Shown piece after piece: positions 23,660 through 43,575 of a stretch of DNA of 64,000 bases. Source of the DNA: an uncultured Bacilli bacterium (GTDB taxonomy: Bacteria; Bacillota_I; Bacilli_A; RF39; UBA660); contig CASTSB010000005.1 in the NCBI GenBank assembly GCA_949451605.1, positions 1,096 to 65,095 of the forward strand, read 5' to 3'. The notes beneath the pieces were generated by a model. It saw only the letters and a program-made list of their open reading frames with translations. It did no database searches and was not told the origin of the DNA. Every line of letters starts with the position of its first letter. The stretch's first letter is position 1. The position numbers and the translations under genes are program-made.

Positions 23660-24973
23660 TTATAAATTTCTTTTAATTAACTGGTTAAGTTCAACAGCGT
23701 ACTCCATAGGAAGTTCTTCTCTAAACTCTTCTAAAAATCCTAAAACAATTAATTCCATTGCTCTCTCACGAGAAATTCCACGGCTCATCATATAAAATAA
23801 ATTATCCTCGCTTATTTTGGATACAGTTGCTTCATGTTCAATACTACTATTTAAATTAAAACATCCATTAGTTGGAATTGTATCACTTTTAGATTCACCA
23901 TCAAGAATTAAAGTATCACACTTAACATTAGCAATAGAGTTATCAGCAGATTCTTCAATCTTAGCAGTTCCTCTATAAGTAGCATTACCTCCATTGCTTG
24001 CAATACTCTTAGAAATTATATTACTTGTTGTATTCTTTCCTAAATGAATCATTTTTGCCCCAGTATCTTGGATTTGTCCTTTACTTGCCACGCTAATAGT
24101 AATACATGTACCTTTAGAATTGTCACCACTTAAAATACAACAAGGATATTTCATAGTAACTAAACTACCAATATTTCCGTCAATCCACTCCATAGTACCA
24201 TTAGTATCAACTAAAGCTCTCTTAGTAACTAAATTATAAACATTAGGTGCCCAATTCTGTACAGTTGAATAACGACATTTACTATTCTTACCTACATATA
24301 TTTCAACAACAGCAGCATGCAGACTACTTTCACTATAAGTAGGAGCAGTACATCCCTCAACATAATGAAGCTCACTATTATCATCAACAATAATTAAAGT
24401 ACGTTCAAATTGCCCCATATTTTTACTATTAATTCTAAAATAACTTTGCAGTGGACGATCAAGCTTAGTATTAGGAGGAATATAAATAAAACTTCCTCCA
24501 CTAAATACTGAACTATTTAGCGCCGCAAACTTATTATCATTATTCTTAACAATCTTACCAAAATACTTCTTAACAAGATCTGGATAAGTCTTCATAGCTT
24601 GTTCAATAGATGTAAATATAACTTTCTTATTTTCAATTTCTTCAAGCATTTTATGGTATATTACTTCACTCTCATATTGAACACCCATACCACCTAAATG
24701 CTTTTCACTCTCAAGTACACCTAAATCATCAAGCTCATTAACAATTGGCTTTAAAACATTATTCCAATCACTTTGAATTTTCTCATCTGCTTCATTAGAT
24801 TTATAATAAATTATCTTTGAAAAATCCAAATCGATATTAGGTCCAAATTTAGGCATAAGAAACTTATTAAAAATTTTAAAACTCTCAAGTCTATAATCTC
24901 TTATCCAATCATCTTCATTTTTCTTCTTAGATATTTGTAGAACATTCTCTTCACTAATACCTACTATTTCCAT
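23660..24973 (-). CDS. sufB: Fe-S cluster assembly protein SufB
   Basis: 437 aa; conserved C-terminal GISRERAMELIVLGF. Confidence 0.9.
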   Translation of the reverse strand: MEIVGISEENVLQISKKKNEDDWIRDYRLESFKIFNKFLMPKFGPNIDLDFSKIIYYKSNEADEKIQSDWNNVLKPIVNELDDLGVLESEKHLGGMGVQYESEVIYHKMLEEIENKKVIFTSIEQAMKTYPDLVKKYFGKIVKNNDNKFAALNSSVFSGGSFIYIPPNTKLDRPLQSYFRINSKNMGQFERTLIIVDDNSELHYVEGCTAPTYSESSLHAAVVEIYVGKNSKCRYSTVQNWAPNVYNLVTKRALVDTNGTMEWIDGNIGSLVTMKYPCCILSGDNSKGTCITISVASKGQIQDTGAKMIHLGKNTTSNIISKSIASNGGNATYRGTAKIEESADNSIANVKCDTLILDGESKSDTIPTNGCFNLNSSIEHEATVSKISEDNLFYMMSRGISRERAMELIVLGFLEEFREELPMEYAVELNQLIKRNL

Positions 24974-24987
24974 ATAACCACCAGTTT

Positions 24988-25506
24988 CTATTTTACTTTA
25001 ACTTTTTCTTTAGCACGTTCTTCAAAATAATAATTCATATAGTCTTCATGCTTTCTATCATTTTTTATTATCCTTAGCATTTTAAAATAATTATCAAACT
25101 TCTTCATTCTTCGAGCAGCAATGCTTTTTCTATCCTTAAAATAATTCTTAGAATTTAATACAATATTTTCTAAATCTTCCATACTAACATTCTCAGGTAA
25201 AGATGTATCTTTCAAAGAAGATTTAATAAGCCAACAAGGTCCAGTTTCAAAAAAACTACTTACTGACTCAATTTTGCTTCCATAACAAATACCATTACTA
25301 TAATTTTCATAACAAGTATTTCTTTTAAATACTGGAAAAGTTTCTAATCTATCAAATACATTTAAGAAAGTATAACCTTCCTTTTCATTGCCAAAACGTT
25401 CTATTATTACATAAGATAAATCCTCTGTAACTTCAATTCCATTATGGTCTTTATCAAAATATTTTAATTCTGCTAAAAATAGATTTTCTTTATTCATTGT
25501 TCTCAT
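24988..25506 (-). CDS. hypothetical protein inserted in the suf operon
   Basis: 172-aa ORF between sufU and sufB. No motif recognised. Confidence 0.4.
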   Translation of the reverse strand: MRTMNKENLFLAELKYFDKDHNGIEVTEDLSYVIIERFGNEKEGYTFLNVFDRLETFPVFKRNTCYENYSNGICYGSKIESVSSFFETGPCWLIKSSLKDTSLPENVSMEDLENIVLNSKNYFKDRKSIAARRMKKFDNYFKMLRIIKNDRKHEDYMNYYFEERAKEKVKVK

Positions 25507-25930
25507 TATTTCCTAATTCCCCTAACATTTTTTCTATTGCATTACTTGATAAAAGAGCACAGCCCTTTCTATTTGGTTGTTTACAAATTTCATCATAAAC
25601 ATTTAACTCACCTAGAATATCACTATTATATTCTTCTTCTGCAATCATATTTTTATAATTAATTAAAATGTTTTTGGCATCATCTACACTTTTACCAATT
25701 AAACTTCTAATCATTATAGAAGAAGCTGAGGTACTAATAGCACAAGCTTCTCCATCAAATCTTATATCTTTAATAATTCCATCTTCTACTAACATCATAA
25801 AATCCAAATTATCAATACAACTCTCACTATTAGTATTAACTTTTAAATAACTTTCATCATCAACTAATCCTCGATTCATTGGCTCTTGATAATTATCTAA
25901 AATAACTTGTCTTCTTAAATTACTATCCAT
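25490..25930 (-). CDS. sufU: SufU-type Fe-S scaffold (IscU-like)
   Basis: GEACAISTSASS and CKQPNRKGCALL cysteine ligands. Confidence 0.8.
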   Translation of the reverse strand: MDSNLRRQVILDNYQEPMNRGLVDDESYLKVNTNSESCIDNLDFMMLVEDGIIKDIRFDGEACAISTSASSIMIRSLIGKSVDDAKNILINYKNMIAEEEYNSDILGELNVYDEICKQPNRKGCALLSSNAIEKMLGELGNNENNE

Positions 25931-25938
25931 AATTACTC

Positions 25939-27132
25939 CTATAATACTACTTTAAAAATGTCTTCTGATTTTTCTAATGCAGAGACTAATCTTTCAACAT
26001 CAGAAAAATTATTATAAAAATACATACTACAACGAACTGTATTTTTAATTCCAATTTCATCTTTTAATATTTTGGCACAATGATTACCAGCTCTTACAAA
26101 GATTTTATAATGATTTAAATAAACAGATGAGTCTTGTGCAAAAACATCGTTAATATTAAAAGCTAAAATACCACTATCAGATTTTTTATTATATATTGTA
26201 ATATTTGGAATAGCTTCAAGTTTAGAAATCAAATATTCTTTTAACTTCATTTCATGTTCATGAATCTTATCCATTCCAATTGATTCTAAATATAATATAG
26301 CTTCTCTAAGACCAATAACTTCTGCAATAGGTGGAGTTCCAGCTTCAAACTTTATAGGAACTTCTTTCAATTCATAAGATGAATCAGCCTCAAAGAAATT
26401 GTTCATTCCTCCACCATAACATAAAGGATCCATTTCTTTTAATAAATCATATTTACCAACTAATACTCCAACACCAGTAGGTCCACACATTTTATGTCCT
26501 GAAAAACTTAAAAAATCAATATTGCTATTTTTAAAATCTTCCTTCATATGAGGTACACTTTGAGCACCATCTACACAAAAATAAATATTATTATCTTGAC
26601 ATATTTTACCTATTGTTGAAACATCCCTAACATCTCCAATTACATTAGTTACATGAGCAATTGAAATAACTTTAGTATTAGGTGTAATACTTTTTCTTAC
26701 ACTGTCAACAGTTAATTCATATTCATCATTTAAATCCATATATTTAACAACTATACCAATTTCTTCACTAAGCTTTAACCATGGAAGAACATTTGATGCA
26801 TGTTCACTCTTAGTAATTAATACCTCATCCCCTGCTTTAAGATGCTTCTTCATAAAGCCAAATACTACCATATTTATTGACATAGTAGTACCAGAGGTAA
26901 AAACTACTTCCTTACTTGATGCATTAACAAATCTTGCGACTACTTCTCTTGTATCATCATAAAGCTTATTAGTTACAATAGCAGCATCATAATCTCCCCT
27001 ATGTATATTTGAAGTATGACGACTCATATATTTCACAATACTATCTGTTACACATCTAGGTTTTAATGTAGTTGCACCATTATCAAAATAAACAATATCC
27101 TCATCTAACATAGGGAAATCTTCTCTATTCAT
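25939..27132 (-). CDS. sufS: cysteine desulfurase SufS
   Basis: FSGHKMCGPTGVGVL (PLP lysine), RAGNHCA. Confidence 0.9.
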   Translation of the reverse strand: MNREDFPMLDEDIVYFDNGATTLKPRCVTDSIVKYMSRHTSNIHRGDYDAAIVTNKLYDDTREVVARFVNASSKEVVFTSGTTMSINMVVFGFMKKHLKAGDEVLITKSEHASNVLPWLKLSEEIGIVVKYMDLNDEYELTVDSVRKSITPNTKVISIAHVTNVIGDVRDVSTIGKICQDNNIYFCVDGAQSVPHMKEDFKNSNIDFLSFSGHKMCGPTGVGVLVGKYDLLKEMDPLCYGGGMNNFFEADSSYELKEVPIKFEAGTPPIAEVIGLREAILYLESIGMDKIHEHEMKLKEYLISKLEAIPNITIYNKKSDSGILAFNINDVFAQDSSVYLNHYKIFVRAGNHCAKILKDEIGIKNTVRCSMYFYNNFSDVERLVSALEKSEDIFKVVL

Positions 27133-27143
27133 TAAAACACCTC

Positions 27144-27719
27144 CTAAATATTTTTTATTTCTTCTATAAATGGAAGAATCCTTTCTTTTTCCACATCATT
27201 ATTTATCAAAAATCCATTTAAAAGTAATCTATAACTTTCATTTCGACTAATACCTCTACTCATTAAATAGAATAAAACTTCATCCCTAAACTTTCCAATA
27301 TAAGCAGAATGATTACTTATAACATCATAATTATCTATTAATAAATTAGGACTAATATTACTTTTACCATTACTCATATTTATGATTTGATTTTCTTGAT
27401 CACAAATACATCCACTACTTGTTTTTAAAACTACACCATTAATAAAATAATTAAGTTTAGAACTTCCAACGTTTACACCATGATTAAAAACATAACTTTT
27501 AGTATTAGAAGCTAAATGGTTAACTTCTAAATTAAACTGATTATTATCATAGTTAATATTGTTATAATAATACTTTAATTCTACATTTTCACTGTCTAAA
27601 TTAATCGAAACTTTAGAACTACTATTTATAGAAAAATGATAAATAATTGTATCTTCTTTAATACTATATTGGTAATCCTTTTTTTCATTATTATCCAATA
27701 TATACAATATTTTACTCAT
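27144..27719 (-). CDS. sufD: SufD-like protein, unusually short (191 aa)
   Basis: C-terminus LFYLMSRGISRNESYRLLLNGFL matches the SufB/D C-terminal block. Start overlaps the sufC stop. Confidence 0.5.
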   Translation of the reverse strand: MSKILYILDNNEKKDYQYSIKEDTIIYHFSINSSSKVSINLDSENVELKYYYNNINYDNNQFNLEVNHLASNTKSYVFNHGVNVGSSKLNYFINGVVLKTSSGCICDQENQIINMSNGKSNISPNLLIDNYDVISNHSAYIGKFRDEVLFYLMSRGISRNESYRLLLNGFLINNDVEKERILPFIEEIKNI

Positions 27720-28491
27720 TTACACCATTTCCAATCATTTCATTTATCATAGAATATCCATTTTTTTCTATTTCTAAAGCAAGCTTCATATCACCTGTAT
27801 ACTTTATATTCCCATCATTTAAAATATGAACATAGTTAGGTTTAATATATTCTAAAATTCTTGGATAATGAGTAATAATTAAAACCGAAGTATCCTTATT
27901 TTCTTCTAAATAATCATTAATATTTTTACAAACAATTCTCAAGCTATCTACATCAAGTCCTGAATCTAATTCATCTAAAATTATAAACTTAGGCTTTAAA
28001 ACTTTTAATTGTAATATTTCATTCTTTTTCTTTTCTCCACCGCTAAATCCCTTATTTAGAGATCTATGTAGCATATTTTTATTTAGAGATAAATCATCCA
28101 TTGCACTTTCCATATCTTTAATAAAAGTATATAGATTAACTTTCTCATTAATAATTTCAGACTTAGCAGTTCTAATAAACTCACTATTTGATACTCCATC
28201 TATAACAGTAGGATCTTGCATACATAAAAATATTCCTTTTTTAGCTCTATCAGATACATCTAAAGAAGAAATATCTTCACCCATAAACTTTATCTTTCCT
28301 GAAGTAACTTCATAATTATAATGTCCCATTATGGCTTTAGATAAAGTACTCTTACCAGTTCCATTAGGACCCATAATCGCATGAACCTCTCCTGGCTTTA
28401 TTAAAAGTGATAAATCTTTTAAAATCTCTTTATCACTATTTTTTAATTTTACATTTAAATTATTTATTTCTAACAATTGAATCATCCCCAA
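27712..28491 (-). CDS. sufC: Fe-S cluster assembly ATPase SufC
   Basis: GPNGTGKSTL Walker A, LSGGEKKKNEILQL, ILDELDSGLD. Confidence 0.9.
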   Translation of the reverse strand: MGMIQLLEINNLNVKLKNSDKEILKDLSLLIKPGEVHAIMGPNGTGKSTLSKAIMGHYNYEVTSGKIKFMGEDISSLDVSDRAKKGIFLCMQDPTVIDGVSNSEFIRTAKSEIINEKVNLYTFIKDMESAMDDLSLNKNMLHRSLNKGFSGGEKKKNEILQLKVLKPKFIILDELDSGLDVDSLRIVCKNINDYLEENKDTSVLIITHYPRILEYIKPNYVHILNDGNIKYTGDMKLALEIEKNGYSMINEMIGNGVNE

Positions 28492-28569
28492 TTTCTATAA
28501 AGCAACTATATTTTATCACATAAAGTCTATAAAAACAAAAAAAAGTCACAACAATTGTGACTAATTTAT

Positions 28570-29790
28570 TTAAGCAATTTTTCTTGTATTTTCAGAGTTA
28601 TTTGAATTATCTATTATACTTCTAGCATCTTTTAAAACTTTTGCTAAATCACTACTTACTTCTGGCTTATAATTAGACATTCTAGTTTCTAATTCTTCCT
28701 TCTCTTCTTTTAATCTAGCAATTTCATTATTTAATTCATCAATTACAGATTGTTGATTACGATTTATTTCTACAAGTTCTGATATTGTATAAGTAACATC
28801 AGCTAAAATATTATCTTCACTATTTGTAGTCTCTTCATAATTATTAGCTTCCTCTTCATATACAGGAGCATCCACTTTTGTATTATCTTCTTCTGAATAA
28901 ACATCAGGTACTATTACATCTTCTCTTACTTCTTCCTCTACAGGATTATCAACTTTCTCTTCTTCTACTTCACTATTATCTAACCCTAATGGAGTATTAG
29001 TAATTGCAGAATTAACTTCATCATGACTAATCATATTATCAACTGGAGCTTCATCAACAGCAGGTATAAAACTTTCTTCTTCATTAACTTCAGTTTCTTC
29101 TTTGTTTTCTCCACTCATGGCATTATCAATAGTATCTTGAGAAACTAAATTATCGCTAACATCTAAATCATTAGATGGATTATTATTCATTACTGAATTA
29201 TTTATAGGGAATATATTAAATTGCATAATATCAGAATTTACTGTATTCTTACTAAAATAAATCTTATCATTAGTAATACCCATAAAACTATAGAATTCAT
29301 TACCAATTAAATTATTACCATTCAAATCACATAAAGTAGCTTCAGAAAATTGATCATTAAAGACAAACTTTCCACTATTATTCATAACCGCATTAATTTT
29401 TTCTTTAATAGTTGCAGGAGTAGTAACAAGTTGTGTAGCACTAGCTGGATCTTCTCTTAATCTAATGCTTTCTAAAACACTAGGAGATGTAGGTTGTGCT
29501 TTTTCAACTAATAAAATACCTTCTAAGATATTTTTAATAGTTTTATTATCGCATGGAATTAATATTTTACCATTACTATCTATTAAACCAATATGAGTAG
29601 CAACAACAGTTGGATCAACTGCCTCTACTAAAGAAGTAGAAACAATTACATTACCATTGCTTAGTTTTCCTCCATCTAAAAAATAATACTGTAACCCTTC
29701 ATCAGTCACACCATACGTACAAATAATATCATTACGATCCTTATATTTTACAATTCCCTTTTGTATTTGCATATTACACACACCACCCAA
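28570..29790 (-). CDS. hypothetical protein with acidic middle and C-terminal coiled coil
   Basis: 406 aa; C-terminal SELVEINRNQQSVIDELNNEIARLKEEKEELETR heptad-like segment. Confidence 0.4.
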   Translation of the reverse strand: MGGVCNMQIQKGIVKYKDRNDIICTYGVTDEGLQYYFLDGGKLSNGNVIVSTSLVEAVDPTVVATHIGLIDSNGKILIPCDNKTIKNILEGILLVEKAQPTSPSVLESIRLREDPASATQLVTTPATIKEKINAVMNNSGKFVFNDQFSEATLCDLNGNNLIGNEFYSFMGITNDKIYFSKNTVNSDIMQFNIFPINNSVMNNNPSNDLDVSDNLVSQDTIDNAMSGENKEETEVNEEESFIPAVDEAPVDNMISHDEVNSAITNTPLGLDNSEVEEEKVDNPVEEEVREDVIVPDVYSEEDNTKVDAPVYEEEANNYEETTNSEDNILADVTYTISELVEINRNQQSVIDELNNEIARLKEEKEELETRMSNYKPEVSSDLAKVLKDARSIIDNSNNSENTRKIA

Positions 29791-29910
29791 TTACTATTCC
29801 CCTTATCTTCTTTTATATTAACACAAATTAAATACTAAAACAATAACAATTTTACTTTTTCTTTCCTTGTCAATAAAAAAAAATTAAGATAAAATAAAAC
29901 TGGTGATAAA

Positions 29911-30663
29911 ATGCAAAAACAAAAAAGATTAATGTATGGAATGATGGTACTATTTCTTATAGTTTTCGTAACTTTTGGAGTAATAATCATGAACGAAAAA
30001 ATAGCTCCTCTAAAAATAAATAAAGTAACAGAAAAACTAAATAACTATATAAAAGAAAACTATAGTGATTTAAAAAATATAAGCCTTTCAAAAGTAGAAT
30101 ACAAACATTTAAGATATGAGGCTAAAGTAGAATCTACTGAAAATAAAAATTACTATTTTAATATTTATTATGAAAATAAAAAAATTACTGATACATATAA
30201 AAAAGATTATCTAGAAGGAAATACTATTATTAAATATCAAGAAAATAATATAAAACAAAATATTAAAAAGAAAACAAATAACAGTTACAATATATCTATT
30301 AATAAAAAATTAAATAAATTTACAGAAAACATAAAAAAAGAAATTATTAATAATAAAAATCTAGAAGCATATGAAATATACACCCTAGAAGCAAACATTA
30401 CAGTAAAAGAATTAACTAGTAAAAGAATATCTAATACATTAAAAACATTTATTAATAATATGCATGATAAAAAGATAACACCTAAATCATATAATTTTAT
30501 AATTCAGTCAAGTAGTGACAAAGTAAAAGCTATCAAAATTTCTAATATTACATATGAATTAGTAAATAGTAATAACTTAAAGACTATAATTAATGATATA
30601 ATTAATAACGAAAAAACAAATATTTTAAATAAATATGATATTCAATATGAATATTTAAATTAG
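29911..30663 (+). CDS. N-terminally anchored hypothetical protein
   Basis: TM helix MVLFLIVFVTFGVII then a K/N-rich repeated domain. Confidence 0.4.
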   Translation: MQKQKRLMYGMMVLFLIVFVTFGVIIMNEKIAPLKINKVTEKLNNYIKENYSDLKNISLSKVEYKHLRYEAKVESTENKNYYFNIYYENKKITDTYKKDYLEGNTIIKYQENNIKQNIKKKTNNSYNISINKKLNKFTENIKKEIINNKNLEAYEIYTLEANITVKELTSKRISNTLKTFINNMHDKKITPKSYNFIIQSSSDKVKAIKISNITYELVNSNNLKTIINDIINNEKTNILNKYDIQYEYLN

Positions 30664-30672
30664 GAGGTATTT

Positions 30673-31068
30673 ATGGAAAATTGTCTTTTTTGTAAAATAA
30701 TAAATGGTGAAATCCCATCACGTACTATTTATGAAGATGAAATGGTAAAAGTATTTATGGATATTAATCCATCTACTAATGGTCATTTACTAGTAGTTCC
30801 AAAAAAACATATCGTAAATATATTAGATATGGACAAAGAAACTTATATTTATATGTTTAACTTAATAAAAGAAAAGCTTTATCCTTTATTAAAAGAAAAA
30901 TTAAATTGTGAAGGATTAACAATTGCTCAAAATAATGAATTAGGTCAAGAAGTAAAACACTTCCATATTCATTTAATACCAAGATATCAAAATGATTGTG
31001 GAGATTTCAAATATGATAAATCTTTATTAATTGATCTAGATGAAGTAGAAAAGAAATTAGCCAACTAA
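30673..31068 (+). CDS. HIT-family hydrolase
   Basis: HFHIHLIPR histidine triad; RBS taggaggt. Confidence 0.8.
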   Translation: MENCLFCKIINGEIPSRTIYEDEMVKVFMDINPSTNGHLLVVPKKHIVNILDMDKETYIYMFNLIKEKLYPLLKEKLNCEGLTIAQNNELGQEVKHFHIHLIPRYQNDCGDFKYDKSLLIDLDEVEKKLAN

Positions 31069-31100
31069 AAATACAAAGCTGAAACTTTGTATTTTTTTAT
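31069..31100 (+). terminator. rho-independent terminator
   Basis: aaatacaaagctgaaactttgtattttttt. Confidence 0.5.
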
Positions 31101-31101
31101 T

Positions 31102-31248
31102 TTACCAGTTAGTAAAACTTCCTCCAAGGATAATAGCTAGTAAGATATATAAAATAATGATTATTAAGAATCCATTATTTCCTCTATTACTATTACAGCA
31201 AGAAGTTGTTACTGTAGTACATGGATTTTCATTACAATTACAAGTCAA
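31102..31248 (-). CDS. YjcZ-like tiny Cys-rich sporulation membrane peptide (TTG start)
   Basis: RBS gggaggtga then TTG. Peptide TCNCNENPCTTVTTSCCNSNRGNNGFLIIIILYILLAIILGGSFTNW resembles the tiny_TM_bacill / YjcZ family. Confidence 0.45.
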   Translation of the reverse strand: MTCNCNENPCTTVTTSCCNSNRGNNGFLIIIILYILLAIILGGSFTNW

Positions 31249-31262
31249 CTGACTCACCTCCC

Positions 31263-31343
31263 TTAAATATAAGCACCTAAGATAATTATTAAAAGAATAA
31301 ATAATACTAAAATGATAGCTGAAGATGATACGCAATTATTCAT
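31263..31343 (-). CDS. YjcZ-like tiny sporulation membrane peptide
   Basis: RBS aaaggagg 7 nt upstream of ATG. MNNCVSSSAIILVLFILLIIILGAYI compares with GGGFALIVVLFILLIIVG of YjcZ-type peptides. Confidence 0.45.
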   Translation of the reverse strand: MNNCVSSSAIILVLFILLIIILGAYI

Positions 31344-31465
31344 GTCTATTCCTCCTTTTTTTATGCTTTCAATTTATTCTATGGCAAAAGTTCAAAATGG
31401 TGATTATAACTATAATTTATTGCACTAAATTTATTTTTTTGCTATTATATCTTCAGGAGGTTAGT

Positions 31466-32458
31466 ATGAAAAAAAATAATGTAATTTTAGGATTAAGTGC
31501 ATTTCTTCTAATCGCATCTTTATTCACAACTGGATGTGGAAAAGAAGTTAAAATAAGTAAAAAAGCTGTTGTTGGTTTTGAAAATGGTGAAATCAGTGCC
31601 AATGATTATTATAAAGAAATAAAAGAAGATAATATTTCAAGAATCATTGATATGATTGATCATAATTTATTAGATGAAAAATACAAAAAAACTGACGAAG
31701 AAGATAAAGATGTAAAAAAACAAATAGATAACTTAAAATCTACTTATTCAGATGGTCCTGCATTTAAACAAGTTATAGAACAATACTTTGGTGCAGAAAG
31801 TGAAGAAGAACTAGAAGAAATACTTAGACTAGAATATAAAAGAGAACAAGCAGTAAACGACTACATCGAAAAACATTTATCAAATAAAGAAATCAAAAAA
31901 TATTATGATGAAAATGTCTATGGTGATATGTCCGCAAAGCATATTTTAATTTCTACAAATGTTGCAGATAACGCATCTGATGAAGAAAAAGAAGAAGCTG
32001 AAGAAGAAGCTTTAAAAAAAGCTAAAGAAGTTATTGAAAAATTAGAAGATGGAAAAGATTTCGATAAACTAGCTAAAAAATATTCAGATGATGAAGGATC
32101 TGCTACAAATGGCGGAGATTTAGGAAAATTCTCATATGATGAAATGGTAGAAGAATTTTCAAGTGCTTGTGCAAAATTAAAAGTAAATGAATATTCTAAA
32201 GAACCAGTAAAATCATCTTTTGGATATCATATAATTTTAAAAACTGCTCAAGAAAAAAAGCCTAGTCTTAAAAAAGTAAAAAATGACATCAAAGAAAAAT
32301 TAAGAGAACAAAAATTAGAAGATTCAAAAACTCTATATTATGAAACTCTTGATTCAATGAGAAAAGATAATGGCATTACTTGGAATGACAGCGCAATGAA
32401 AAAAGCTTATACTAAATTCATTGACAAATTAAAAGAAAATGCAAAAAAAGATAAATAA
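31466..32458 (+). CDS. prsA: foldase lipoprotein PrsA (parvulin-type PPIase)
   Basis: RBS caggagg, lipobox LFTTGCG, parvulin block GGDLGKFSYDEMVEEF...FGYHIILKT. Confidence 0.8.
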   Translation: MKKNNVILGLSAFLLIASLFTTGCGKEVKISKKAVVGFENGEISANDYYKEIKEDNISRIIDMIDHNLLDEKYKKTDEEDKDVKKQIDNLKSTYSDGPAFKQVIEQYFGAESEEELEEILRLEYKREQAVNDYIEKHLSNKEIKKYYDENVYGDMSAKHILISTNVADNASDEEKEEAEEEALKKAKEVIEKLEDGKDFDKLAKKYSDDEGSATNGGDLGKFSYDEMVEEFSSACAKLKVNEYSKEPVKSSFGYHIILKTAQEKKPSLKKVKNDIKEKLREQKLEDSKTLYYETLDSMRKDNGITWNDSAMKKAYTKFIDKLKENAKKDK

Positions 32459-32463
32459 CAAAA

Positions 32464-32492
32464 AATAGCACACTAAAGTGCTATTTTTTTTG
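32464..32492 (+). terminator. rho-independent terminator of prsA
   Basis: atagcacactaaagtgctat hairpin plus T8. Confidence 0.55.
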
Positions 32493-32953
32493 AAAATAAT
32501 AAATCTTATTTTCTATCGCAATTAAAAGTATTTTATCTTTTTTATCATAGTAATATAAATTTCCTAATCTATATAAAACGTCTTTCCTTATATGAATATT
32601 AAATAGGATCTTTTCGTTACAATCCAAACTATCATAATAATCTGATACGAGATCTTTTACATATTTTTGATTGTTCATTTTAATCAGCTTAAATTTATCT
32701 AATTTTAAAGCCCTATCATAATAGAATATATAAAAGTCTGCTCCTTTTCTATAATAGTAATTTTCTCTCTACTAGGTGGTACAGGTAGTAGTTCTTCCTT
32801 ATAACTTATATTAATATTTTTTACGTCGAATAAAACATAGCTGCTTAATATTAATATAAAGAGGAAAGGTAAGAAAATAATTAGAAATAATAAGATAGAT
32901 ATAATTTTAAATGCTTTAATTAAATACTCTCGAAACTTTCTCAATCTTACCAC
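32481..32953 (-). pseudogene. frameshifted gene (N-terminal TM anchor plus Y-rich domain split over two frames)
   Basis: 82-aa ORF (TM anchor) and 65-aa ORF overlap around 32700..32790. The second frame stays open upstream as RENYYYYRKGADFYIFYYDRALKLDKFKLIKMNNQKYVKD... Confidence 0.35.
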
Positions 32954-33017
32954 CTAATATAGTATATAGAATAGTTCTATTTCTGCCCGGGCATTAATAA
33001 CGAGTTATAAAAAAATT

Positions 33018-33115
33018 TATTTTTTTTAATCTAAACTCTTATAAAAGTCTTTAATATGTCTAAAAAGCTCTTTAATTTTAATCGGATTCAGTTATATTAT
33101 TATCCTAAATAATAA
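33018..33115 (-). pseudogene. orphan 3'-terminal remnant of a third copy of the 151/155-aa paralog family
   Basis: About 85 percent DNA identity to 33884..33975. With a 1-nt deletion it encodes ...KIKELFRHIKDFYKSLD*, matching the C-termini of the two intact paralogs. Confidence 0.5.
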
Positions 33116-33240
33116 TATAAAAGAGTTCCTTTCTTCAATTTAAGAAGACATAATACTAAAAATTATTCAAAATGCTTAATAAAATGAAAAAAACTCTATT
33201 TTATACAAAAATATATTATAATAATTTAAAGGTGAAGAAA

Positions 33241-33807
33241 ATGAATAAATTTTTCGAATCAAAATTTACATTAATAACAATAATCTTATTATGCTTTTTA
33301 AGTAATTGGTATAAAGATAATATATCCTTAATATTTTATATCATAATTAGATTAATATTAATTATTTTATGCATGTATTTTTTTTACAAATTATATAAAA
33401 AAAGTTTTACATTAAAAAACAAAATCATCACATCTTTTATATTTATTATTACTTTATTTCTATTTTTTTATGATTTTAGATTAACAAAAACTAAAATTGA
33501 ACTAAATATTTTTAAAAATCAAAGAAATATAATTATTCAAAAAATTAAAAACAATGAATTTAAATATTATTATAAGAACAATATTAAATTGTCCAAATAT
33601 AAATATACTTCTAATGATGGTGAGATTTATGTATATAAAAATGATACTGAAGGACAAGTTATTTCCTTTTGGATATATCGTGGTTTAATGAGTGATTCAA
33701 TTCAACTAATTTATACAACAGATAAAGATTTATTAGAAAAAAATATAAAAAACATTAATAAAAGCATTAAGTTAAATAAAAATTGGTTTTATATTACAAC
33801 TAAATAA
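33241..33807 (+). CDS. small polytopic membrane protein with Y/K-rich tail
   Basis: RBS aaaggtgaag. Three hydrophobic helices, then a soluble tail. Confidence 0.4.
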   Translation: MNKFFESKFTLITIILLCFLSNWYKDNISLIFYIIIRLILIILCMYFFYKLYKKSFTLKNKIITSFIFIITLFLFFYDFRLTKTKIELNIFKNQRNIIIQKIKNNEFKYYYKNNIKLSKYKYTSNDGEIYVYKNDTEGQVISFWIYRGLMSDSIQLIYTTDKDLLEKNIKNINKSIKLNKNWFYITTK

Positions 33808-33883
33808 TAAGTAAAGCAAATAATTATAAAAAGAAAAAGTGAATCTATATATACAGATTCACTTCGAAATTTAGTATTTCATT

Positions 33884-34351
33884 TTAATCTAAACTCTTAT
33901 AAAAATCTTCAATATGTCTAAAAAACTCTTTATTTTTAAAATCGGACTCAGTTATATTATTATCCTCAGCAAACATATAAAGAAATTCCATCCATGAATA
34001 ATCTTTTGCTTTAATAGCCTTTTCTGTAGCCTCTTCAAAGCTACTAACCAAAACATCTCTAGGTAAAGTAGATAATAATTCCATAATTACATCTGCTCCA
34101 GGCCAATTAATATCTTGTAACCAATAATACAATTCAGGTATAACATCTTTCACTCTAGGATAGCCTCTTAACAATAGTACTCTAGCTTTATAATGCCATC
34201 TCCAATTAGCACGCTCATCCATTATGAACTTTCTGTTATCATAATCTTTAGCATTTACCAATAATTTAACATTTTCTTCTTGTATTTTCTCAGGCAATAC
34301 AGAATACATTATATCATTATAAGCTTTATCAGCTGCTTTCATTTTTATCAC
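33884..34351 (-). CDS. cytoplasmic immunity-like protein, paralog A
   Basis: 155 aa. ARVLLLRGYPRVKDVIPELYYWLQDINWPGADVIMELLSTLPRDVLVSSFEEA shared with 34400..34855. Confidence 0.5.
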   Translation of the reverse strand: MIKMKAADKAYNDIMYSVLPEKIQEENVKLLVNAKDYDNRKFIMDERANWRWHYKARVLLLRGYPRVKDVIPELYYWLQDINWPGADVIMELLSTLPRDVLVSSFEEATEKAIKAKDYSWMEFLYMFAEDNNITESDFKNKEFFRHIEDFYKSLD

Positions 34352-34399
34352 CTCTTTTTATAAAAAGTATTAAATTTTTGAAATATATTCTACAAAATA

Positions 34400-34855
34400 T
34401 TAATTTAAACTAGTATAATAATCTTCAATAATCTTAAAAAGCTCTTTATTTTCAAATTCAGATTCTATTATATTATTATTTTCCGCAAATTCATAAAGAA
34501 AAAGCATCCACTCTTCATCATTCTGCTTAACAGCCCTACCCACTGCTTCTTCAAAACTGCTAACCAAAACATCTCTAGGAAATGTAGATAACAACTTCAT
34601 AATCTCATCTGCTCCAGGCCAATTAATATCTTGTAACCAATTATACAATTCAGGTATTACATTCTTTACTTTAGGATACCCTCTTAAAAGTAGTACATTG
34701 GCTCTATATCTCCAATAAAACTTTGAACCATTATTAAGAAACATATCGTTTCCATAATTTTCAGAGTTAGCTAATATTTTTACATTTTTTTCTAATTGTT
34801 TTTGAGTAAGTCTACTTGTATTAATTTCTAAATAAGCCTTTTCTTCTTTGGTCAT
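34400..34855 (-). CDS. cytoplasmic immunity-like protein, paralog B
   Basis: 151 aa. ANVLLLRGYPKVKNVIPELYNWLQDINWPGADEIMKLLSTFPRDVLVSSFEEA; high DNA identity to paralog A in the core. Confidence 0.5.
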   Translation of the reverse strand: MTKEEKAYLEINTSRLTQKQLEKNVKILANSENYGNDMFLNNGSKFYWRYRANVLLLRGYPKVKNVIPELYNWLQDINWPGADEIMKLLSTFPRDVLVSSFEEAVGRAVKQNDEEWMLFLYEFAENNNIIESEFENKELFKIIEDYYTSLN

Positions 34856-34871
34856 TAATTTACCTCACTTT

Positions 34872-35126
34872 TTACCATGCTTCCCACTTATGTATTACTT
34901 CATTTGTTTTATCATTGAATGCTGCAAATAAGAATTCCCCATGATTACAATAATCTGAATTATCACAATAGCTTTCAATAAAATATATTAAATACTCATT
35001 TTCATTTTTACCATAGGAAGGTGTATTAGAAAACAAACCATTAGGTAATCCTAGTTTGTCATCATAATCTTGCAGTTTACTAACACTCTTAGATTTATAT
35101 TTTTTATTAAATTTATCGATTGTCAT
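34872..35126 (-). CDS. small hypothetical protein
   Basis: 84-aa ORF with Cys/His cluster CDNSDYCNHGEF. Confidence 0.3.
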   Translation of the reverse strand: MTIDKFNKKYKSKSVSKLQDYDDKLGLPNGLFSNTPSYGKNENEYLIYFIESYCDNSDYCNHGEFLFAAFNDKTNEVIHKWEAW

Positions 35127-35165
35127 ATTTTTATCAACATAATATAAAGCTAATTCTGATCCACT

Positions 35166-35606
35166 CTACAAAGCCCCTGGAGAAAAAATAAAGTGAACTT
35201 TTTCCACAGAATTTGGAATTTCGTCAGGAAAAGCTTTCAAATATGAACCACGAACAATGTCTTTATAATATTTTACATCAGTAATTGGATTTTCAGCCAA
35301 TTCAAATGAACATATAAACATCCCACTTAAATAATAAGCTGGCAAAAAGAAAGTCAAAATAAAAGATATTATTGATAACAAAATCTGCGACTTCCGTATG
35401 CTACATTTAAAACAACAAATTATCAAAAGTTGAAAAAATATTAAAAATGGTAAATAAGCAAATATCAAGATTTTTACTCTTGTATTAGTTGAATAATATT
35501 TACTTAAACAAAAAAATATACAACCAATAGCTAATGATATAATTGTTAAAGCTAAAAGAAAAATAAATAATATTACTTTTTTTCTATTCCATTCTTCTTT
35601 TTTCAA
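35166..35606 (-). CDS. four-TM small membrane protein (possible membrane immunity protein)
   Basis: 146 aa, four hydrophobic helices rich in Cys/Phe. Confidence 0.4.
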   Translation of the reverse strand: MKKEEWNRKKVILFIFLLALTIISLAIGCIFFCLSKYYSTNTRVKILIFAYLPFLIFFQLLIICCFKCSIRKSQILLSIISFILTFFLPAYYLSGMFICSFELAENPITDVKYYKDIVRGSYLKAFPDEIPNSVEKVHFIFSPGAL

Positions 35607-35738
35607 AATAGTTCACTTCCGAATACATTAACAATATAATTATACCACAACTTTATGCTTATACAATTTGAATACATAATTTTGTTAAAATATTCTTTTT
35701 CAATATTACATCTGATATAATAAAATTAGGTGATTAAA

Positions 35739-36803
35739 ATGTGTAAAACTTTAACTAATAAAAAACACAAAAATATTGATTATTCAAATCTTTCATATGA
35801 AAATTCAAATTTCATATTTGATGAGTTATACAATGACTTCAAAAAAAATCCATTAAGCTTAAAAATTATTAAAGGATATATAATAATATTTATAATTAAT
35901 TTTTTAACTTATTATCTTATAAATCTAATAATAAAACAGAAACTGGAATTATCAATTACCATTATCATTTTTATTTCTATCTTAAGTTTATTTTTTACAG
36001 TATTTTTTAAAATTAAGGGACTTAAAAACACTTCAAAAAATTCTAATGCAAAATTTTACTTTTATGATGATTTTATTTTATTAAAAAGAAAAAAAGACAT
36101 TGAATATATTTTTTTAAATGAAATAAGTACTATATCCGAATCAGAAAAATACTTTAATCTTTACAAAAATGGAAATAGATATGTTTTAATAAAAACCAAA
36201 TTAGAACAAAAATTAATAGACTATCTAAGACAATTAAAACAAAATATAAAAGAACAAAAAAAAGATAAATATTATAGTTACAAAAATTTTATTAAAAATT
36301 ATAAGAATGATTTAATATTATATTCTAAAAATGAAATAAATGAAGAAGTATTAAATAAATACTATAAAATAAAGAAAGTAAATAAAGATTTATTTATAAA
36401 TAGTTTGTTTGTTAATTTATTTAGTATTCATATTTTATTATTAATCATATACAAATTTATATTTAAATCTTACAATTTTAATATAAAAATTTATCTTTTT
36501 ATAATATTCGAAATACTTTTATTAACAATAATATTTCAAAAACACTATAAAACAAGAGATATGAAAACAATTATAAAAGATAAATTTATAGATACTTATT
36601 TGTATAACAACTTTATACTAGTAAATTTCAAAAATAAAATAATAAGATATAATTATAGTGATATTAAATATATATGTGAAAAAGATAATTTATTAGTCAT
36701 CAAATTTAAAGAATACAATTCTCAACCAATATTTTTTAATAAAAACACATTTAAAAAAGACCAATTTGACTTTTTAAATAGTAAAAAAATACATACTAAA
36801 TAA
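35739..36803 (+). CDS. membrane protein with internally duplicated TM-pair plus PH-like (YcxB/bPH-like) module
   Basis: RBS aggtga. Two repeats of (two TM helices + FYFYDDFILLKRKK... / LYNNFILVNFKNK...). Convergent with the RHS gene. Confidence 0.4.
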   Translation: MCKTLTNKKHKNIDYSNLSYENSNFIFDELYNDFKKNPLSLKIIKGYIIIFIINFLTYYLINLIIKQKLELSITIIIFISILSLFFTVFFKIKGLKNTSKNSNAKFYFYDDFILLKRKKDIEYIFLNEISTISESEKYFNLYKNGNRYVLIKTKLEQKLIDYLRQLKQNIKEQKKDKYYSYKNFIKNYKNDLILYSKNEINEEVLNKYYKIKKVNKDLFINSLFVNLFSIHILLLIIYKFIFKSYNFNIKIYLFIIFEILLLTIIFQKHYKTRDMKTIIKDKFIDTYLYNNFILVNFKNKIIRYNYSDIKYICEKDNLLVIKFKEYNSQPIFFNKNTFKKDQFDFLNSKKIHTK

Positions 36804-36871
36804 TATAGTATATATTTTTCAAATAATAATTTTGAATAAATAATTTAATTAAGTTTCTGTTATAACATAAT

Positions 36872-39800
36872 TTAAGAAAACAGTAGTTTTAAACCATCTG
36901 TAAACAATTTTAAAGAGTCACCAAGTGCTTTTATTGCAGTTGCAGATGTTTTTATGTAAGGATATGCAACTATAGTTAGTGGTACAAGAGCCACCGAAAA
37001 CAATGCAACCTCTTTTTTTATATTTATTCTTGTATAACCACTTACACTTTCATTATCTCCTGTCTCTATTTCAACATCTACTCCAAAATAAATATAGTCA
37101 TCATCAAAATCAAAAGTATTTTTGACAGTAGTGTCTCCTGTTGTTGAAGAAATATAAAAATCTGCAGAAGTTGGACCAACATCATAACCATAATTACCAA
37201 AATTATGATCTGCTGAAATATCGCAAGTACCAAATACGGTGGAAATAGAACCTTTATTTGTTTGAGTAACTATTTTTTTATTCTTTGAAACACCAGAAGT
37301 TTTACTTACAGCGCCTGATGGGGTAGAATTGTTACAAAAACTAGCAGTCGAACTTTTTTTATTTTTCTTTTTTGCCTGTTCTTTTACTTTTTTCTTAGTA
37401 CTTTTAGAAAATAGATTAACAATAGCTGAAAAAAGATTGTTCAAAAATTTTCCATTTCCAGTTTTATCATAATTGACTATAGGATTATTACTTACATAAG
37501 CATACAAATTATAAGATAAAATATCTTCATTTGCTCCTAATACAACATCAGGAGAAATGAATCTTCCTAATTCAGGATTATAATATCTATGATTTAAATA
37601 ATACAGACCTGTTTCTAAATCATAATAATAGCTTCTATATCTAAATGGATTAATATTTCCTATATGATTTAGATCATTTGAAATATCATTACCATTCTCG
37701 CCTTTAATAGATAATAATTTTCCCCAACTATCATATATATAGGTTACAATCTTATTACCCTCTTCATCAAAAATTCCTATAATATCATTATGTAGATTTT
37801 TTAAATAATAAAATATTTTATTATTATATTTAAAACCGATCAAACCTTCAGCATCATATAGATAATAAATTACTGTATCATTTCTATCTTCATATACAAT
37901 TTCATCATTTAATGTATAATATTTTGTCTCCAAACCATTATAAATTTTAGATTTTCTAATACCATTTTCATCATATTTAAATTTTAAATTTTTATTTTCT
38001 ATAATATTTCTTATTTCAGATAATTCAACTCCATTTTTCCATAAGAAACTATTATTATTAAACGATACAATGTTTCCTAATTGATCATAAGTGATATCAT
38101 TATCATTATAAGAAGTTAATTGATCTTCCCAATTTTCATTATTATAATTGTAATTAGAAATTTTTAATACTTCATTTGTTTGAAGATTTTTTTCTATTTT
38201 TTTAAGCAAATTCCCTGTATTATCATATAAATATTCAATTTGCGTATTTAAATCATAATTTTTTTCTTCTATTAATTCATTATAGTTATCATAATCATAC
38301 TGTTTTATCAAGCTTTCATTTAAATATATATTTTTAATATTATATACTTCATCATAATCATATTTATAAATATCATTATTAACTTGATATGAATTTATTA
38401 GATTACTGGTTCTTTTTCCATTTGAAACAAAATTACTTGCTGTATTTATAATGTTATTAATATTTTTACCAACATTTCTATTTAAGCTATCATAATTGTA
38501 ATTTACCTTTACTTCACCAAATAAAGTTGTTACTAATTTTTCTCCATCAAAATTATTTATTTGCTTATTAATATTATTATTGTATTTATATTCTTTGGTT
38601 GTTATAAAGTTTTCTGTATCATAATCATATATTACTTTAAAACTATCATTTTTATATAAGTGAAGTCTATTATTTTTATCATAATTAAACTTAGAAACAG
38701 AATCATTTGAAATGATTTTCGAAATATTACCATTAGTATCATAATAGAACTTATATTTATCATTTTCTTTTTTTATTTCATTAACCCTTTCAAAATCATC
38801 ATACAACATTTCGATATATTGATTATTTCCATATGTAATTTTCTTTAAATTTCCATTATTAGTTTCATATTCATTTTTAGTTAAAATGTTATTATTTAAG
38901 TAAATTGTATCTATATTCATAAAATTATCATAAGTTATCAAATACTCTTTATTTCCCTGAGTAATATTAGTTAATAAATTATTAGATCCATAAGTATAGT
39001 TAATTTCCGAATTATTTTGTTTAACTTTAGTACATTGACCTTTAGTATTATACTCATACTTTGTTTCTATACCTCTAGGATCTATTACTCTATTTATTTT
39101 ACCAGTCAAATTATTAACTTCATAAGATGTTTTTCTAAATATTGAATCAACTTTATCACTAATAAATCTTTCGTCTTCAGTATATTTAGTATTATTTTCT
39201 ATAAATAAGCTTTCTGGAATTTCTAAATAAAAATCTATATTTGTAAGATTATCACTATACTTATTTAATTTTACAGAATCGTCTTCTAAAACATTTAAAT
39301 ATCTAACAATATTTTTTTCTACATCATCAAACTTGATATTATAAGAACCGTCATCATTTTTTTCTAAATAAAATAAATTATTTATATTAACTTCATTTAA
39401 TATTAAAAATTCATTACTACTAGAAATACTATAATTATCTTTTAATCCATACTTAATTTTGTATCTGTCTTCATGTTTTTCTAAAAACCATATATTATTA
39501 CTACAATCACTCTCTTCCATTACAAGATTATTTAATAATGCTTTTAAATATTTTTTAGTACCTTTAAGTCTTATTTTATAAAATCCTTCTTTTATTTCAT
39601 TAACATACTTTTTAGAAATTCTATTTGCTATTGGATTTCCATTCTTATAAGTAATGCTATTTGATAAACCATTTGAGTATATTGTATTTAACAATCGATT
39701 TTTTTTATTATAATCATATTCATATATTTGACTTTTACCTAAAGTATTTGTTATACGAGTTATTTGATTTTTCTTATCATAATTTAGAGTATCTTTATTT

Positions 39801-42800
39801 TCTGATTGATCTTCAATAGATATTAAATTATTACTATCATCATAATGATACTCTTCCCTTGTAACATCTTTATAAAAAGATAGATTAGTCATATAAAAGT
39901 TATTACCACTTCCATAATTATGAAAAACAATTATAATTGATTTAAAATTTTCAATTGACTTTTCAGTATGAACAAAATGTTGCCAAGAATCACCATTTGT
40001 TATAGGTAAAGTATAAGATAATATGCAATGTCCATTATCTTCATCATATGGTTCATAAAAAATTGTTACATTACTTCCTACATTAGGGGCATATGGAATA
40101 GTTGCTTCATTTTTAAACCAAAATGATAACGTATATGTATCTCCTTCTTTTCCCTTAATATTAAATTTCTTTTCAATTGAAGTACCTAGATTATAATCCA
40201 TTTTTACTTTTAATGCTTTTGTATTATTTATATCAACAACACTTATAAAATCAGATGGATTTACATCATTATCATTTATACTTGCCTTACAAGCCCAACC
40301 TGCCAGTCCTTCCTTAAAATCAGAATTTTCTATCATATTATAATAATTTACAACTCCGCTTTTTTCTAATTGTATATCATCTATATTAATAGAACCAACT
40401 TCTAACAAAGTAACTTTTATTTTCAATTCACTAACTGCATCTTCCCCATAATAAATTGTTACATCTCCTCTTTCAAAATTACTTGATGAATCTAAAATTT
40501 CTTCACTACTTATTTCTTCACCATTATTATTTATATAACTAAGAGATATTTGTATAGGAATATCGGATTTTATGTATCCACTAAAAGTATAATAATTTTC
40601 TTTTTCCAGTGTTATTGTTTGCTCTAAAGATTTATTTGCAATTGATGACTCTACTTTTAAACTTCTAAGACCAGTATTAACATTGCTCATATCAAATGAT
40701 GTTATTATGCCATTTTCATAAGTAAAGAGATTTTCATCAGATTCAAAGCTAGTATTTTTTAAATAATTTTTTATGTATCTATTTGGTATCATTTCTGAAG
40801 TTAAACAGTTTTTATTATTGTATGATTTTTCAATAGAATAAGCATCATCTATTTGATTTCTTCCTTTTAGAATACTTCTTGAAGTAACATTTCCATATTC
40901 ATTAAAAGCTACAGTTTCCAATATTCCTTTATTATTAATTATTGAAGTTTCATATAAACTATATTCTAATTTATAAATATTACCATAAAAATCATTTGTA
41001 CCAATTTCCATTATTTTTTTTATTTTATATGGAATATTTTCATAATATTCATACTCTATTTTTAATCCACTAATATCTTTAATAGAACTTAGAATGTCCT
41101 TTTCTTTATATTCAAATATAGTACATCCATTTACTGTTTCTATATTTATTAATAAATCATTTAAAAAATTCATTTTAGTAACTGTATTATCTGAACTGGT
41201 AACTATAATGTTATCACCATAATATTGAATATTTATTTCATTATTATTTTTGTCCACAATTTTATTGATAGAATGATCTTCATTAAATTCAATTCTAATT
41301 GTATTATTATCTATATCTCTGATATCTGTTAAAAAATACTTATTAGCATTCTTTGAAAATATCATTTCATTATTATTTGCATCAATCAACTTTAATTGAC
41401 CATTTAATTCTTCAATTATAAGATCTAATCCATCTTCATCATAATAAAAATTATCAAGCTCAACATCATTATTAAAAATATTTGATTCTTTTTTATTGAA
41501 ATAATGAGTAGTTCCATCTTCATCTATATATTGATAGCTATTTTCAATTTTTTCTATTACTTGTTCTAAATTCAATTTATAACCTTTTCCAAAAAAAGTT
41601 TTATTATTAAGAACAACATCATTGGTATTGTAAATAAGCTTTAATGAAGCTGGCATTACCCCACCTATAGTTTTTCCTAAATCAAAAATAGTAGTTAAAT
41701 TTCCTGTATGGGTATTTACATAAGCTTTTCCATTGGAAAATGATTGTTCTTTATAATCCCAATAGCTCTCTATTCCATTATTATTTCTATATTTAATTAT
41801 AAAAACAGGCTTTGGATTACCACTTATAGTATTATCTTTTGAAAAGAATAAAGGATAATTATCGTTAATATAATTTTCATTACAAGATTTTATCATAATT
41901 CCATAATTTGGAGTATCCTCATACCATTTCTTCACTAATCCTGTGATATTCATTTCTATCGGATATGCATCGATAACATTATTAACCATAGTTGATCTAT
42001 AAGTAGGCCCTATATATTCAACTCTAGGATCATATTTATTATGCAAATTATCCCAACTTGCATCACTTTCAGACCAGTTAGATGTCATTCTATGTATTTC
42101 TACTAAATGCTCATATGGATTATCAGAATTATTTGATCCAATACAAGGAGTCAAATTTATAGATGCATCAATTATTTCATATCCTGTTCCAATTATAGGC
42201 AAGTCAAATTTTATTAAAGTTCTATTGACCCTATTTTGTCCATTTACCTTTTCTACTCCAGCTACTAAATATCCTAATTTTCCCTTATCATCATTACTAT
42301 CTCCTGGATAAATATAAGTATCAGTTAAAGTAATGTTCTGACTTTCATTTGTAATAGTTGGATCTACATATACAGGATAAACTACATCCTCCCTACTTAG
42401 CCAATTCTTATCAAGTATTACTTTTATTTGATATTTATCATCAACTAGTAACAACTTATAATTAACATTAGTACATCTCATACCAGATGCATCTTCCATA
42501 AAAGGTTTATCAATAGTAAAAATTACCATCTCATCATTTTTCGCAACAATTAAATCATCTTCTTGTACTAAATCCAAATTAGTATCTACAACAAATGTAA
42601 ATTCGCTATAATTATCATTTTTAAGTATCAATGTTTCTTTAATTTTATTAGATAATGTTTGATATTCTATATCGACACCATCATAAATATTAGTGTATAA
42701 AATATCTTTAAATATTTTTGACTTAGTATGCTTCTTTAATATTTCTGAATCATTCGCATATTTTAGTTTTAAATCAATATAATACTTTCCCTTTGCCATT

Positions 42801-43035: not shown

Positions 43036-43575
43036 CTACTTAACTCTTTTCCACATATTAACACTTAAATATGGTGGCATATGATCAATAGGTTGTTCAT
43101 TTGTTAATTCTGCATCAGCTAAGCAAATATTAGCCCAACCATTCTGCATGCTATTATTAGTACAAGAATGTTTTCCAGATACTATAAGACGTTCTACAAC
43201 ACGTGGTGGAAGATTTTCATTTCTAATAATATGGCTAACTCTACCTCCACTAGTACCTTCTTTATAGTCATCACTTGATGCTAGGAGGAATTTTCCATTT
43301 ATGGCTTCCCACTCTCCTCCAAAATAAACATTTGGATTAGTATTTTGAACACTAATATAAATTGAACCTACAGGATAAATCATATTTAATATGGCATCAC
43401 TTGCTAAAGATAAACTATTACAAGTTAAACTATTAACTACCAAATTTCCTTGATCATCCAATTCAAATTTGTTATCCAAAGAAGTAATACAAGATACATT
43501 TAAATTGTTTACTTCCAAGTTTAAATTATCGCCTTCTTTTGTGAAAGCATTCTCAATATTTTCTAATTGAGTCAT
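43036..43575 (-). CDS. phage-tail-collar-domain (MdpB-like) protein
   Basis: IYPVGSIYISVQNTNPNVYFGGEWEAINGKFLLASSDDYKEGTSGGRVSHIIRNENLPP follows the Collar-domain pattern. Its TAG stop lies 8 nt before the RHS start. Confidence 0.55.
   Translation of the reverse strand: MTQLENIENAFTKEGDNLNLEVNNLNVSCITSLDNKFELDDQGNLVVNSLTCNSLSLASDAILNMIYPVGSIYISVQNTNPNVYFGGEWEAINGKFLLASSDDYKEGTSGGRVSHIIRNENLPPRVVERLIVSGKHSCTNNSMQNGWANICLADAELTNEQPIDHMPPYLSVNMWKRVK

Follow-up and report, generated by a model that had tools for sequence, protein, structure and literature searches.

A tandem pair of DUF5071 genes beside a strain-variable RHS gene: putative orphan immunity genes in an uncultured Bacilli bacterium

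Two adjacent, co-directional paralogous genes, here called A and B, lie downstream of an RHS locus in a stretch of 64,000 nucleotides (nt) from an uncultured Bacilli bacterium (contig CASTSB010000005.1, referred to as the window), accompanied by a further remnant of such a 3' end. This arrangement, pointed out in an initial annotation made from the letters of the window, is confirmed here. The initial annotation took the paralogs for immunity-type genes and the whole for a toxin/immunity locus shaped by cassette recombination. The locus raises the question of which toxin, if any, the products of A and B would counteract: that of the neighboring RHS protein, one encoded elsewhere in the genome, or one that belongs to other bacteria.

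Both products are members of the Pfam family DUF5071 (PF16804), A with an E-value of 1.8e-13 (51.2 bits) and B with 5.9e-10 (39.9 bits), each passing the gathering threshold of 27 bits. The search against hidden Markov models of Imm families, which the initial annotation had proposed, led to this family only: Pfam gives DUF5071 alone for A and B, and neither these two nor their neighbors have a match in NCBIfam, PADLOC or PHROGs. The link to immunity came from synteny. An exhaustive HMMER search collects 586 cluster representatives of the family at E <= 0.001, mostly of about 150 amino acids (aa), a few of which carry two or three tandem DUF5071 repeats, as poly-immunity proteins do. Examples of repeats and fusions are P0079, P0082 and P0130; one protein fuses DUF5071 to DUF4085, which hints that DUF4085 may be an immunity-type domain as well. 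Close relatives of A and B are confined to near-identical copies, the only matches of a word-indexed protein search with A. The best match in the species-representative genome collection has 42% identity, and no relative in other species exceeds about 43% in the genome and metagenome collections.

The context of these distant relatives was examined in 80 loci, taken from one-genome-per-species contigs that encode relatives of A, with a 12-sequence alignment as query. In five of them a protein of 1020-2176 aa ends -14 to +5 nt from the start of the DUF5071 gene, and two of these five long proteins are RHS proteins by Pfam. The tips have a domain of about 100 aa in common, with the consensus IYRYGG.NPGNL.P..D..GLSFST..P.PG...VTTI..LN.TG.V.A..D...HV.V.P (the IYRYGG domain), which sits at the RHS tip, behind the core motif. 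A profile search found 13 intact and 6 truncated copies of the domain in the 80 loci, and each of the 19 shares its strand with a DUF5071 gene and ends -72 to +26 nt from the start of that gene. Some DUF5071 genes elsewhere are preceded by such truncated remnants of the domain. The pattern was replicated independently in 69 metagenome loci, where 21 of 23 matches to the domain are followed by a DUF5071 domain at a distance of no more than about 100 nt; over all 149 loci, 40 of 42 copies have a DUF5071 gene on the same strand within about 100 nt past their end. Furthermore, RHS_repeat is the commonest Pfam family (10 members) among 146 immediate neighbors of DUF5071 genes, the rest being miscellaneous.

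A reciprocal search with the IYRYGG domain returned 345 database proteins, almost without Pfam domains, one of which carries a PT-HINT domain. All three that were looked up have a DUF5071 gene next downstream. One of these loci (L097) is an array in which a full-length RHS gene of 2177 aa is followed by a 174-aa toxin-tip open reading frame (ORF) and DUF5071; another lies beside an Imm32 gene. Many copies of the domain are short stand-alone ORFs of 100-205 aa, some of which keep the last residues of the RHS core (e.g. P0168). The domain is found, among others, in the loci L014, L058, L060, L076, L079 and L097 and in the proteins P0155-P0274. The residues Y-R, D, GLSF, T-T, N, H, P and W are invariant, and the AlphaFold2 model of the domain has a predicted local distance difference test score (pLDDT) of 95.8. 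It has no fold match in the PDB (best E 0.9) and no sequence match in Pfam, NCBIfam or the PDB. Because the IYRYGG domain is nearly always found directly upstream of a DUF5071 gene, also in the reciprocal and metagenome tests, we conclude that DUF5071 is the putative immunity partner of this undescribed candidate toxin domain, and that a DUF5071 protein would bind and neutralize the IYRYGG domain of its upstream RHS gene. The proposal of immunity-type paralogs was in this respect apt, as their homologs are the regular downstream partner of one RHS-borne candidate toxin domain; for A and B, this reading is supported by comparative evidence and not by annotation.

The window itself contains no such toxin. 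A search of all frames with the IYRYGG profile, all filters off, gave no match (best E 0.24), and no toxin-tip or RHS-core fragment was found ahead of A or B, which speaks against a cassette reading of the pair. An immunity gene directly downstream of its toxin is what is found for the DUF5071 homologs, not for A and B themselves. The obvious candidate partner would be the neighboring RHS toxin, which is encoded on the same strand 2 kb upstream of the pair and has no same-strand gene directly after it. However, the C-terminal domain of this RHS protein, of about 190 aa, is unrelated to the toxin domain linked to DUF5071, and a convergent gene of 357 aa as well as a split membrane-protein gene lie in between. 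The C-terminus has no family match and no relative in the metagenome scan, and no homologs of it or of the small ORFs of the window occur near DUF5071 genes elsewhere. In addition, strain L177 is 96.7% identical to the window over 24389..36466 and carries another RHS allele, which from about residue 250 onward is only 30-55% identical, ends in a different tip and is followed by its own 288-aa gene. The breakpoints of this allele swap are near 41499 and at 36466 of the window (942..8387 in L177), the latter inside the convergent 357-aa gene, and despite the other allele L177 keeps A (99% identical) and B unchanged. The pair thus lies just outside the swapped segment and is kept together with a different RHS tip, which makes it very improbable that A, B or both are the cognate immunity of the RHS protein of the window. 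Recombination, as claimed for the locus, does apply to the RHS gene, which is polymorphic in this way. The tip of the L177 protein (VYILVD..IEYVGRT) looks GIY-YIG-like by eye only, and neither this tip nor the 288-aa neighbor has a match in Pfam or NCBIfam. Since no matching toxin lies in the window, the RHS tip is unrelated and the pair is kept across RHS alleles, A and B are probably orphan DUF5071 immunity genes. Their role would be protection against IYRYGG-type toxins delivered by competing bacteria, and two diverged paralogs would widen the range of toxin variants covered.

Several points weigh against this assignment. About three quarters of the DUF5071 genes in the sampled loci have no adjoining toxin domain and have miscellaneous neighbors, no experiment in the literature ties DUF5071 to toxin neutralization, and with no toxin beside A and B the assignment rests on homologs that are only 25-43% identical to A. 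B may be dispensable, given its deletion in one assembly. Finally, the matching toxin could lie elsewhere in the genome, outside the 64 kb, in which case A and B would be ordinary cognate immunity genes that protect against the cell's own toxin or that of its siblings. Several RHS loci are often found in one genome, toxin and immunity genes are occasionally separated, and the 64 kb are part of a contig of at least 333 kb. Nevertheless, the toxin domain directly abuts the DUF5071 gene in 40 of 42 cases, and as the gaps ahead of A and B measure just 16 and 57 nt and contain no toxin fragment, we regard this explanation as unlikely. DUF5071 proteins might also be helical proteins with another role, for example in nucleic-acid processing or as a toxin chaperone or adaptor, with the pair being an ordinary duplication. 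Most members of the family do lie in miscellaneous contexts, and nucleic-acid processing was the speculation of the only structural paper, on Cthe_2751 of Clostridium thermocellum (3UT4/3UT7/3UT8), the sole studied member, for which no function was found; however, the gel-shift DNA-binding assay of the same paper was negative (PMC3282739). Immunity genes typically show what is seen here, with a position directly after a toxin, many stand-alone copies, copies behind truncated toxin remnants and proteins with several repeats, which makes a role other than immunity very unlikely. Known RHS chaperones are moreover encoded upstream of the toxin.

The relation of A and B to Cthe_2751 is distant, although both pass the family threshold. 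The AlphaFold2 model of A (pLDDT 97, nine helices) finds 3UT7 (probability 0.99) and 3UT4 (probability 0.97) as best PDB matches in Foldseek, with template-modeling scores of only 0.43-0.50 and 19-20% identity, while a profile built from 60 sequences related to A and B matches 3UT4 at E 8.4e-5 by way of the WLQD.NWP motif. No function is assigned to the family, and the toxin link is not recorded in Pfam. No mention of DUF5071 or PF16804 was found in the literature searched, and Cthe_2751 is not mentioned by Zhang et al. 2012 (PMC3482391). The next fold matches of A are HEAT/ARM repeat proteins, which brings to mind Imm-HEAT, a family listed with the toxins Ntox34 and Tox-REase-7 (Zhang et al. 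2012, PMC3482391). A is likewise an all-helical repeat protein, but these fold matches are weak (E 0.3-2) and A and B have no sequence match to a HEAT family.

As tandem diverged paralogs without an adjacent toxin, A and B resemble orphan immunity and small homogeneous poly-immunity loci (PMC3482391), including those of Serratia Rhs (PMC10539506) and of acquired interbacterial defense in Bacteroidales (PMC10470768, PMC12247911). The position beside a strain-variable RHS locus, with a gene fragment nearby, is a further similarity to such loci. An extended poly-immunity locus, however, comprises four or more genes (Zhang et al. 2012, PMC3482391), whereas the window has two genes and one remnant, no recombinase alongside and a gene content that is constant among the sampled strains. 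The host of the window also differs, being low in GC (guanine + cytosine) and apparently Gram-positive and not a Gram-negative bacterium with a type VI secretion system. DUF5071 arrays like the rhs orphan modules of Salmonella and E. coli (PMC7043789) exist in other organisms (L097; P0168), but A and B have no toxin-tip or RHS-core fragment, and the toxin half that defines such modules is missing.

What is new is that DUF5071, for which a structure but no role was available, is putatively assigned to an uncatalogued RHS toxin domain as its partner, in an apparently Gram-positive host. This offers a testable function for a Pfam DUF that has had a crystal structure and no role, and it points to a compact candidate toxin domain that is missing from Pfam, NCBIfam and the PDB and is carried by RHS proteins in many Bacillota of the gut and rumen. 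The chances appear about even that DUF5071 and the IYRYGG domain, whose fold has no solved relative, are a toxin-immunity pair not described before and common among the Clostridia of gut and rumen, and that A and B correspond, in a Gram-positive host, to the acquired interbacterial defense of Bacteroidales, with immunity retained and the toxin absent. Two diverged immunity genes that are kept under purifying selection without a nearby toxin, beside an RHS gene that is swapped wholesale between strains, are the pattern expected if defense against the toxins of neighbors is selected independently of offense. The principle of orphan immunity is already established, and what is added to it is one more family and an example from a Gram-positive host.

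A and B are 61% identical as proteins (BLASTP, E 2e-65), less than the roughly 70% first noted, and 76-79% identical as DNA. The shared motif that had been recognized, LLLRGYP.VK.VIPELY.WLQDINWPGAD.IM.LLST.PRDVLVSSFEEA, is present in both. Conserved 3' ends around variable bodies, described as the mark of cassette exchange, are not what the genes display: their similarity peaks in the center, at codons 61-105 (80-89% of nt), and is not confined to the 3' end. Both copies are intact and under purifying selection (ratio of nonsynonymous to synonymous rates, dN/dS, 0.36 with dS 0.81). The size of 151 aa given for A stands, and a GAGG ribosome-binding site precedes its start by 9 nt. B has 155 aa only when read from a GTG (33884..34351). 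Because this GTG at 34351 falls within a GAGGTGA ribosome-binding site, the start of B is likely the ATG at 34342, which gives 152 aa and matches the gene calls.

The remnant downstream of B is real and corresponds to the 3' end of a DUF5071 gene over 106 nt, somewhat displaced from the span of 33018..33115 given before. Contrary to the description of a fragment closest to A at about 85% with a 1-nt deletion, it is 86% identical to the 3' end of B over 108 aligned nt (BLAST E 2e-31 in the 64-kb window) and 79% identical to that of A, and it carries a 2-nt deletion and an in-frame TAA. Its translation reads ..DNNITESD / KELFRHIKDFYKSLD up to the stop, compared to ..EDNNITESDFKNKEFFRHIEDFYKSLD and stop in B. 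The homology to B extends from 2 nt past the stop codon to an abrupt end at about codon 117, and the remnant is present in all strains that cover its position.

The remnant may be the leftover of a third B-like copy, or that of a recombination which brought in an AT-rich gene of 211 aa; accordingly, it may be a by-product of the insertion of this gene rather than a decayed cassette. In the most explicit form of the latter history the remnant is a duplicated recombination arm and not a decayed gene: a circular or linear DNA, on which the 211-aa gene lay together with a terminator and the 3' end of a DUF5071 gene, would have been integrated by a crossover in the 3' end of B. The remnant and 33882..33989 indeed form direct repeats of about 106 nt, with precisely the terminator and the 211-aa gene between them. 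The GC content is 17% in this segment and 28% in the DUF5071 genes, the edges of the homology are sharp, at the stop codon and at codon ~117, and no 5' part of a third copy is found in the window. On the other side, the repeats differ by 14%, the surroundings contain no gene for an integrase or a mobile element, and the insertion is already in all sampled strains, with no empty site among them; a recombination arm is a tentative proposal that we place somewhat below an even chance. Since all sampled strains already carry the arrangement, they do not permit a choice between the histories of the remnant.

The features of the region are collected in Table 1. The window is identical to a contig of JGI metagenome 3300006217, has a GC content of 25.5% and contains no ribosomal RNA genes, no transfer RNA genes, no Rfam family at gathering score and no DUF5071 copies beyond A, B and the remnant. 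The proposed minus-strand unit would run from an extended -10 element near 35640 through the split gene, A and B to a terminator (33865..33836). The element, TGgTATAAT, is a possible promoter for these three genes, recognized by its sequence; it is not listed by a consensus promoter scan and its -35 hexamer is weak. The hairpin past B is likely the end of the transcription unit, as one of only 2 terminator-like sites that a scan found in 4.6 kb, compared to 0.4 expected.

Table 1. Coordinates of the features in and around the DUF5071 gene pair, in minus-strand order
Feature	Coordinates	Strand	Basis or remark
RHS protein, 2051 aa	36872..43027	-	RHS_repeat and Rhs_assc_core matches
Membrane-protein gene, 357 aa	35730..36803	+	ORF list; convergent with the RHS gene, between it and the DUF5071 genes
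Extended -10 promoter-like element TGgTATAAT	35639..35647	-	Upstream of the split gene; read by eye
Membrane ORF, 146 aa	35166..35606	-	ORF list; 5' half of the split gene
ORF, 84 aa	34872..35126	-	ORF list; 3' half of the split gene
Paralog A, cytoplasmic all-helical DUF5071 protein, 151 aa	34400..34855	-	PF16804 match
Paralog B, DUF5071 protein, 152 aa	33884..34342	-	PF16804 match
Intrinsic terminator-like hairpin	33836..33865	-	13-bp stem and T tail, 18 nt past the B stop codon
AT-rich membrane-protein ORF, 211 aa	33172..33807	+	ORF list; between B and the remnant
Non-coding remnant, last ~36 codons of a B-like DUF5071 gene	33024..33129	-	BLAST to the B 3' end
Two small ORFs, 82 aa and 65 aa	32481..32953	-	Past the remnant
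prsA-like gene			Last in this order, past the remnant, the two small ORFs and a second terminator

The 84-aa ORF upstream of A, first thought to be a further cassette, is the tail of a longer gene. It shares its frame with the 146-aa ORF, from which it is parted only by a TAG at 35166-35168, and P0281, a 149-aa protein of another assembly, reads CAG at this position and continues straight through (..FSPGALQSGSELALYYVDKNMTIDKF..). On account of the shared frame and this read-through, 34872..35606 on the minus strand is read as one gene for a predicted membrane protein of about 244 aa that is split by a nonsense codon. No Shine-Dalgarno sequence precedes the 84-aa ORF, its only database matches are its own near-identical copies, and the fused protein of about 244 aa has no family match. 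The possibility that the 84-aa ORF is a diverged toxin tip was considered and rejected, as its score with the toxin profile is -0.7 bits and it is part of the membrane-protein gene. Several strains have no gene call for the 146-aa half.

The two plus-strand membrane proteins of the region, of 211 and 357 aa, are unrelated to each other by comparison. The 211-aa ORF has a GC content of about 17% (0.17-0.19) compared to the window mean of 0.255; its start is likely the ATG at 33241, behind an AGGTGA site, and it has no family match in the library searches. The 357-aa gene has a GC content of 0.156-0.164 and a weak YcxB-like match (E 8e-5).

The presence/absence polymorphism between strains that a cassette locus had been expected to display was not observed: gene content is the same in every same-species assembly that spans the region. 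A is invariant in the six assemblies compared, and B is polymorphic, with changes clustered at 34199-34313 in its N-terminal half. Gene conversion from A to B was rejected as the source of these changes, as the variant bases match A at 9 of 25 sites, which is about chance. Assembly L008 has a 146-nt deletion in B (L008 1144..1187; window 33980..34126) that leaves an 82-aa product, found also as P0006; the deletion may be genuine or may have arisen during assembly across the A/B repeat. Strains differ most in the stretch of the 211-aa ORF, where up to 29 differences, indels included, occur per 500 nt. Divergence is uneven over 32500..37000 as a whole: 34400..36999 is identical in five diverged assemblies, and in 32500..34000 the divergence rises to about 6%, with indels. 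On either side of the identical block, in the RHS body and in paralog B, the sequence varies.

Some smaller features border the locus. Ahead of the RHS gene, a 179-aa protein (43036..43575, minus strand) matches the C-terminal domain of phage baseplate Gp10 (E 2e-17) and PHROG tail proteins. Its gene ends 8 nt ahead of the RHS start and is kept upstream of both RHS alleles; the protein may be an RHS accessory or adaptor. At the other end of the region, the two small ORFs of 82 and 65 aa are a single 133-aa ORF in another strain (L172 3085..3486), and probably the gene is disrupted in one of these states. Between these ORFs and the remnant, just past the latter, the GC-only palindrome TGCCCGGGCA stands at 32987..32996 amid very AT-rich sequence.

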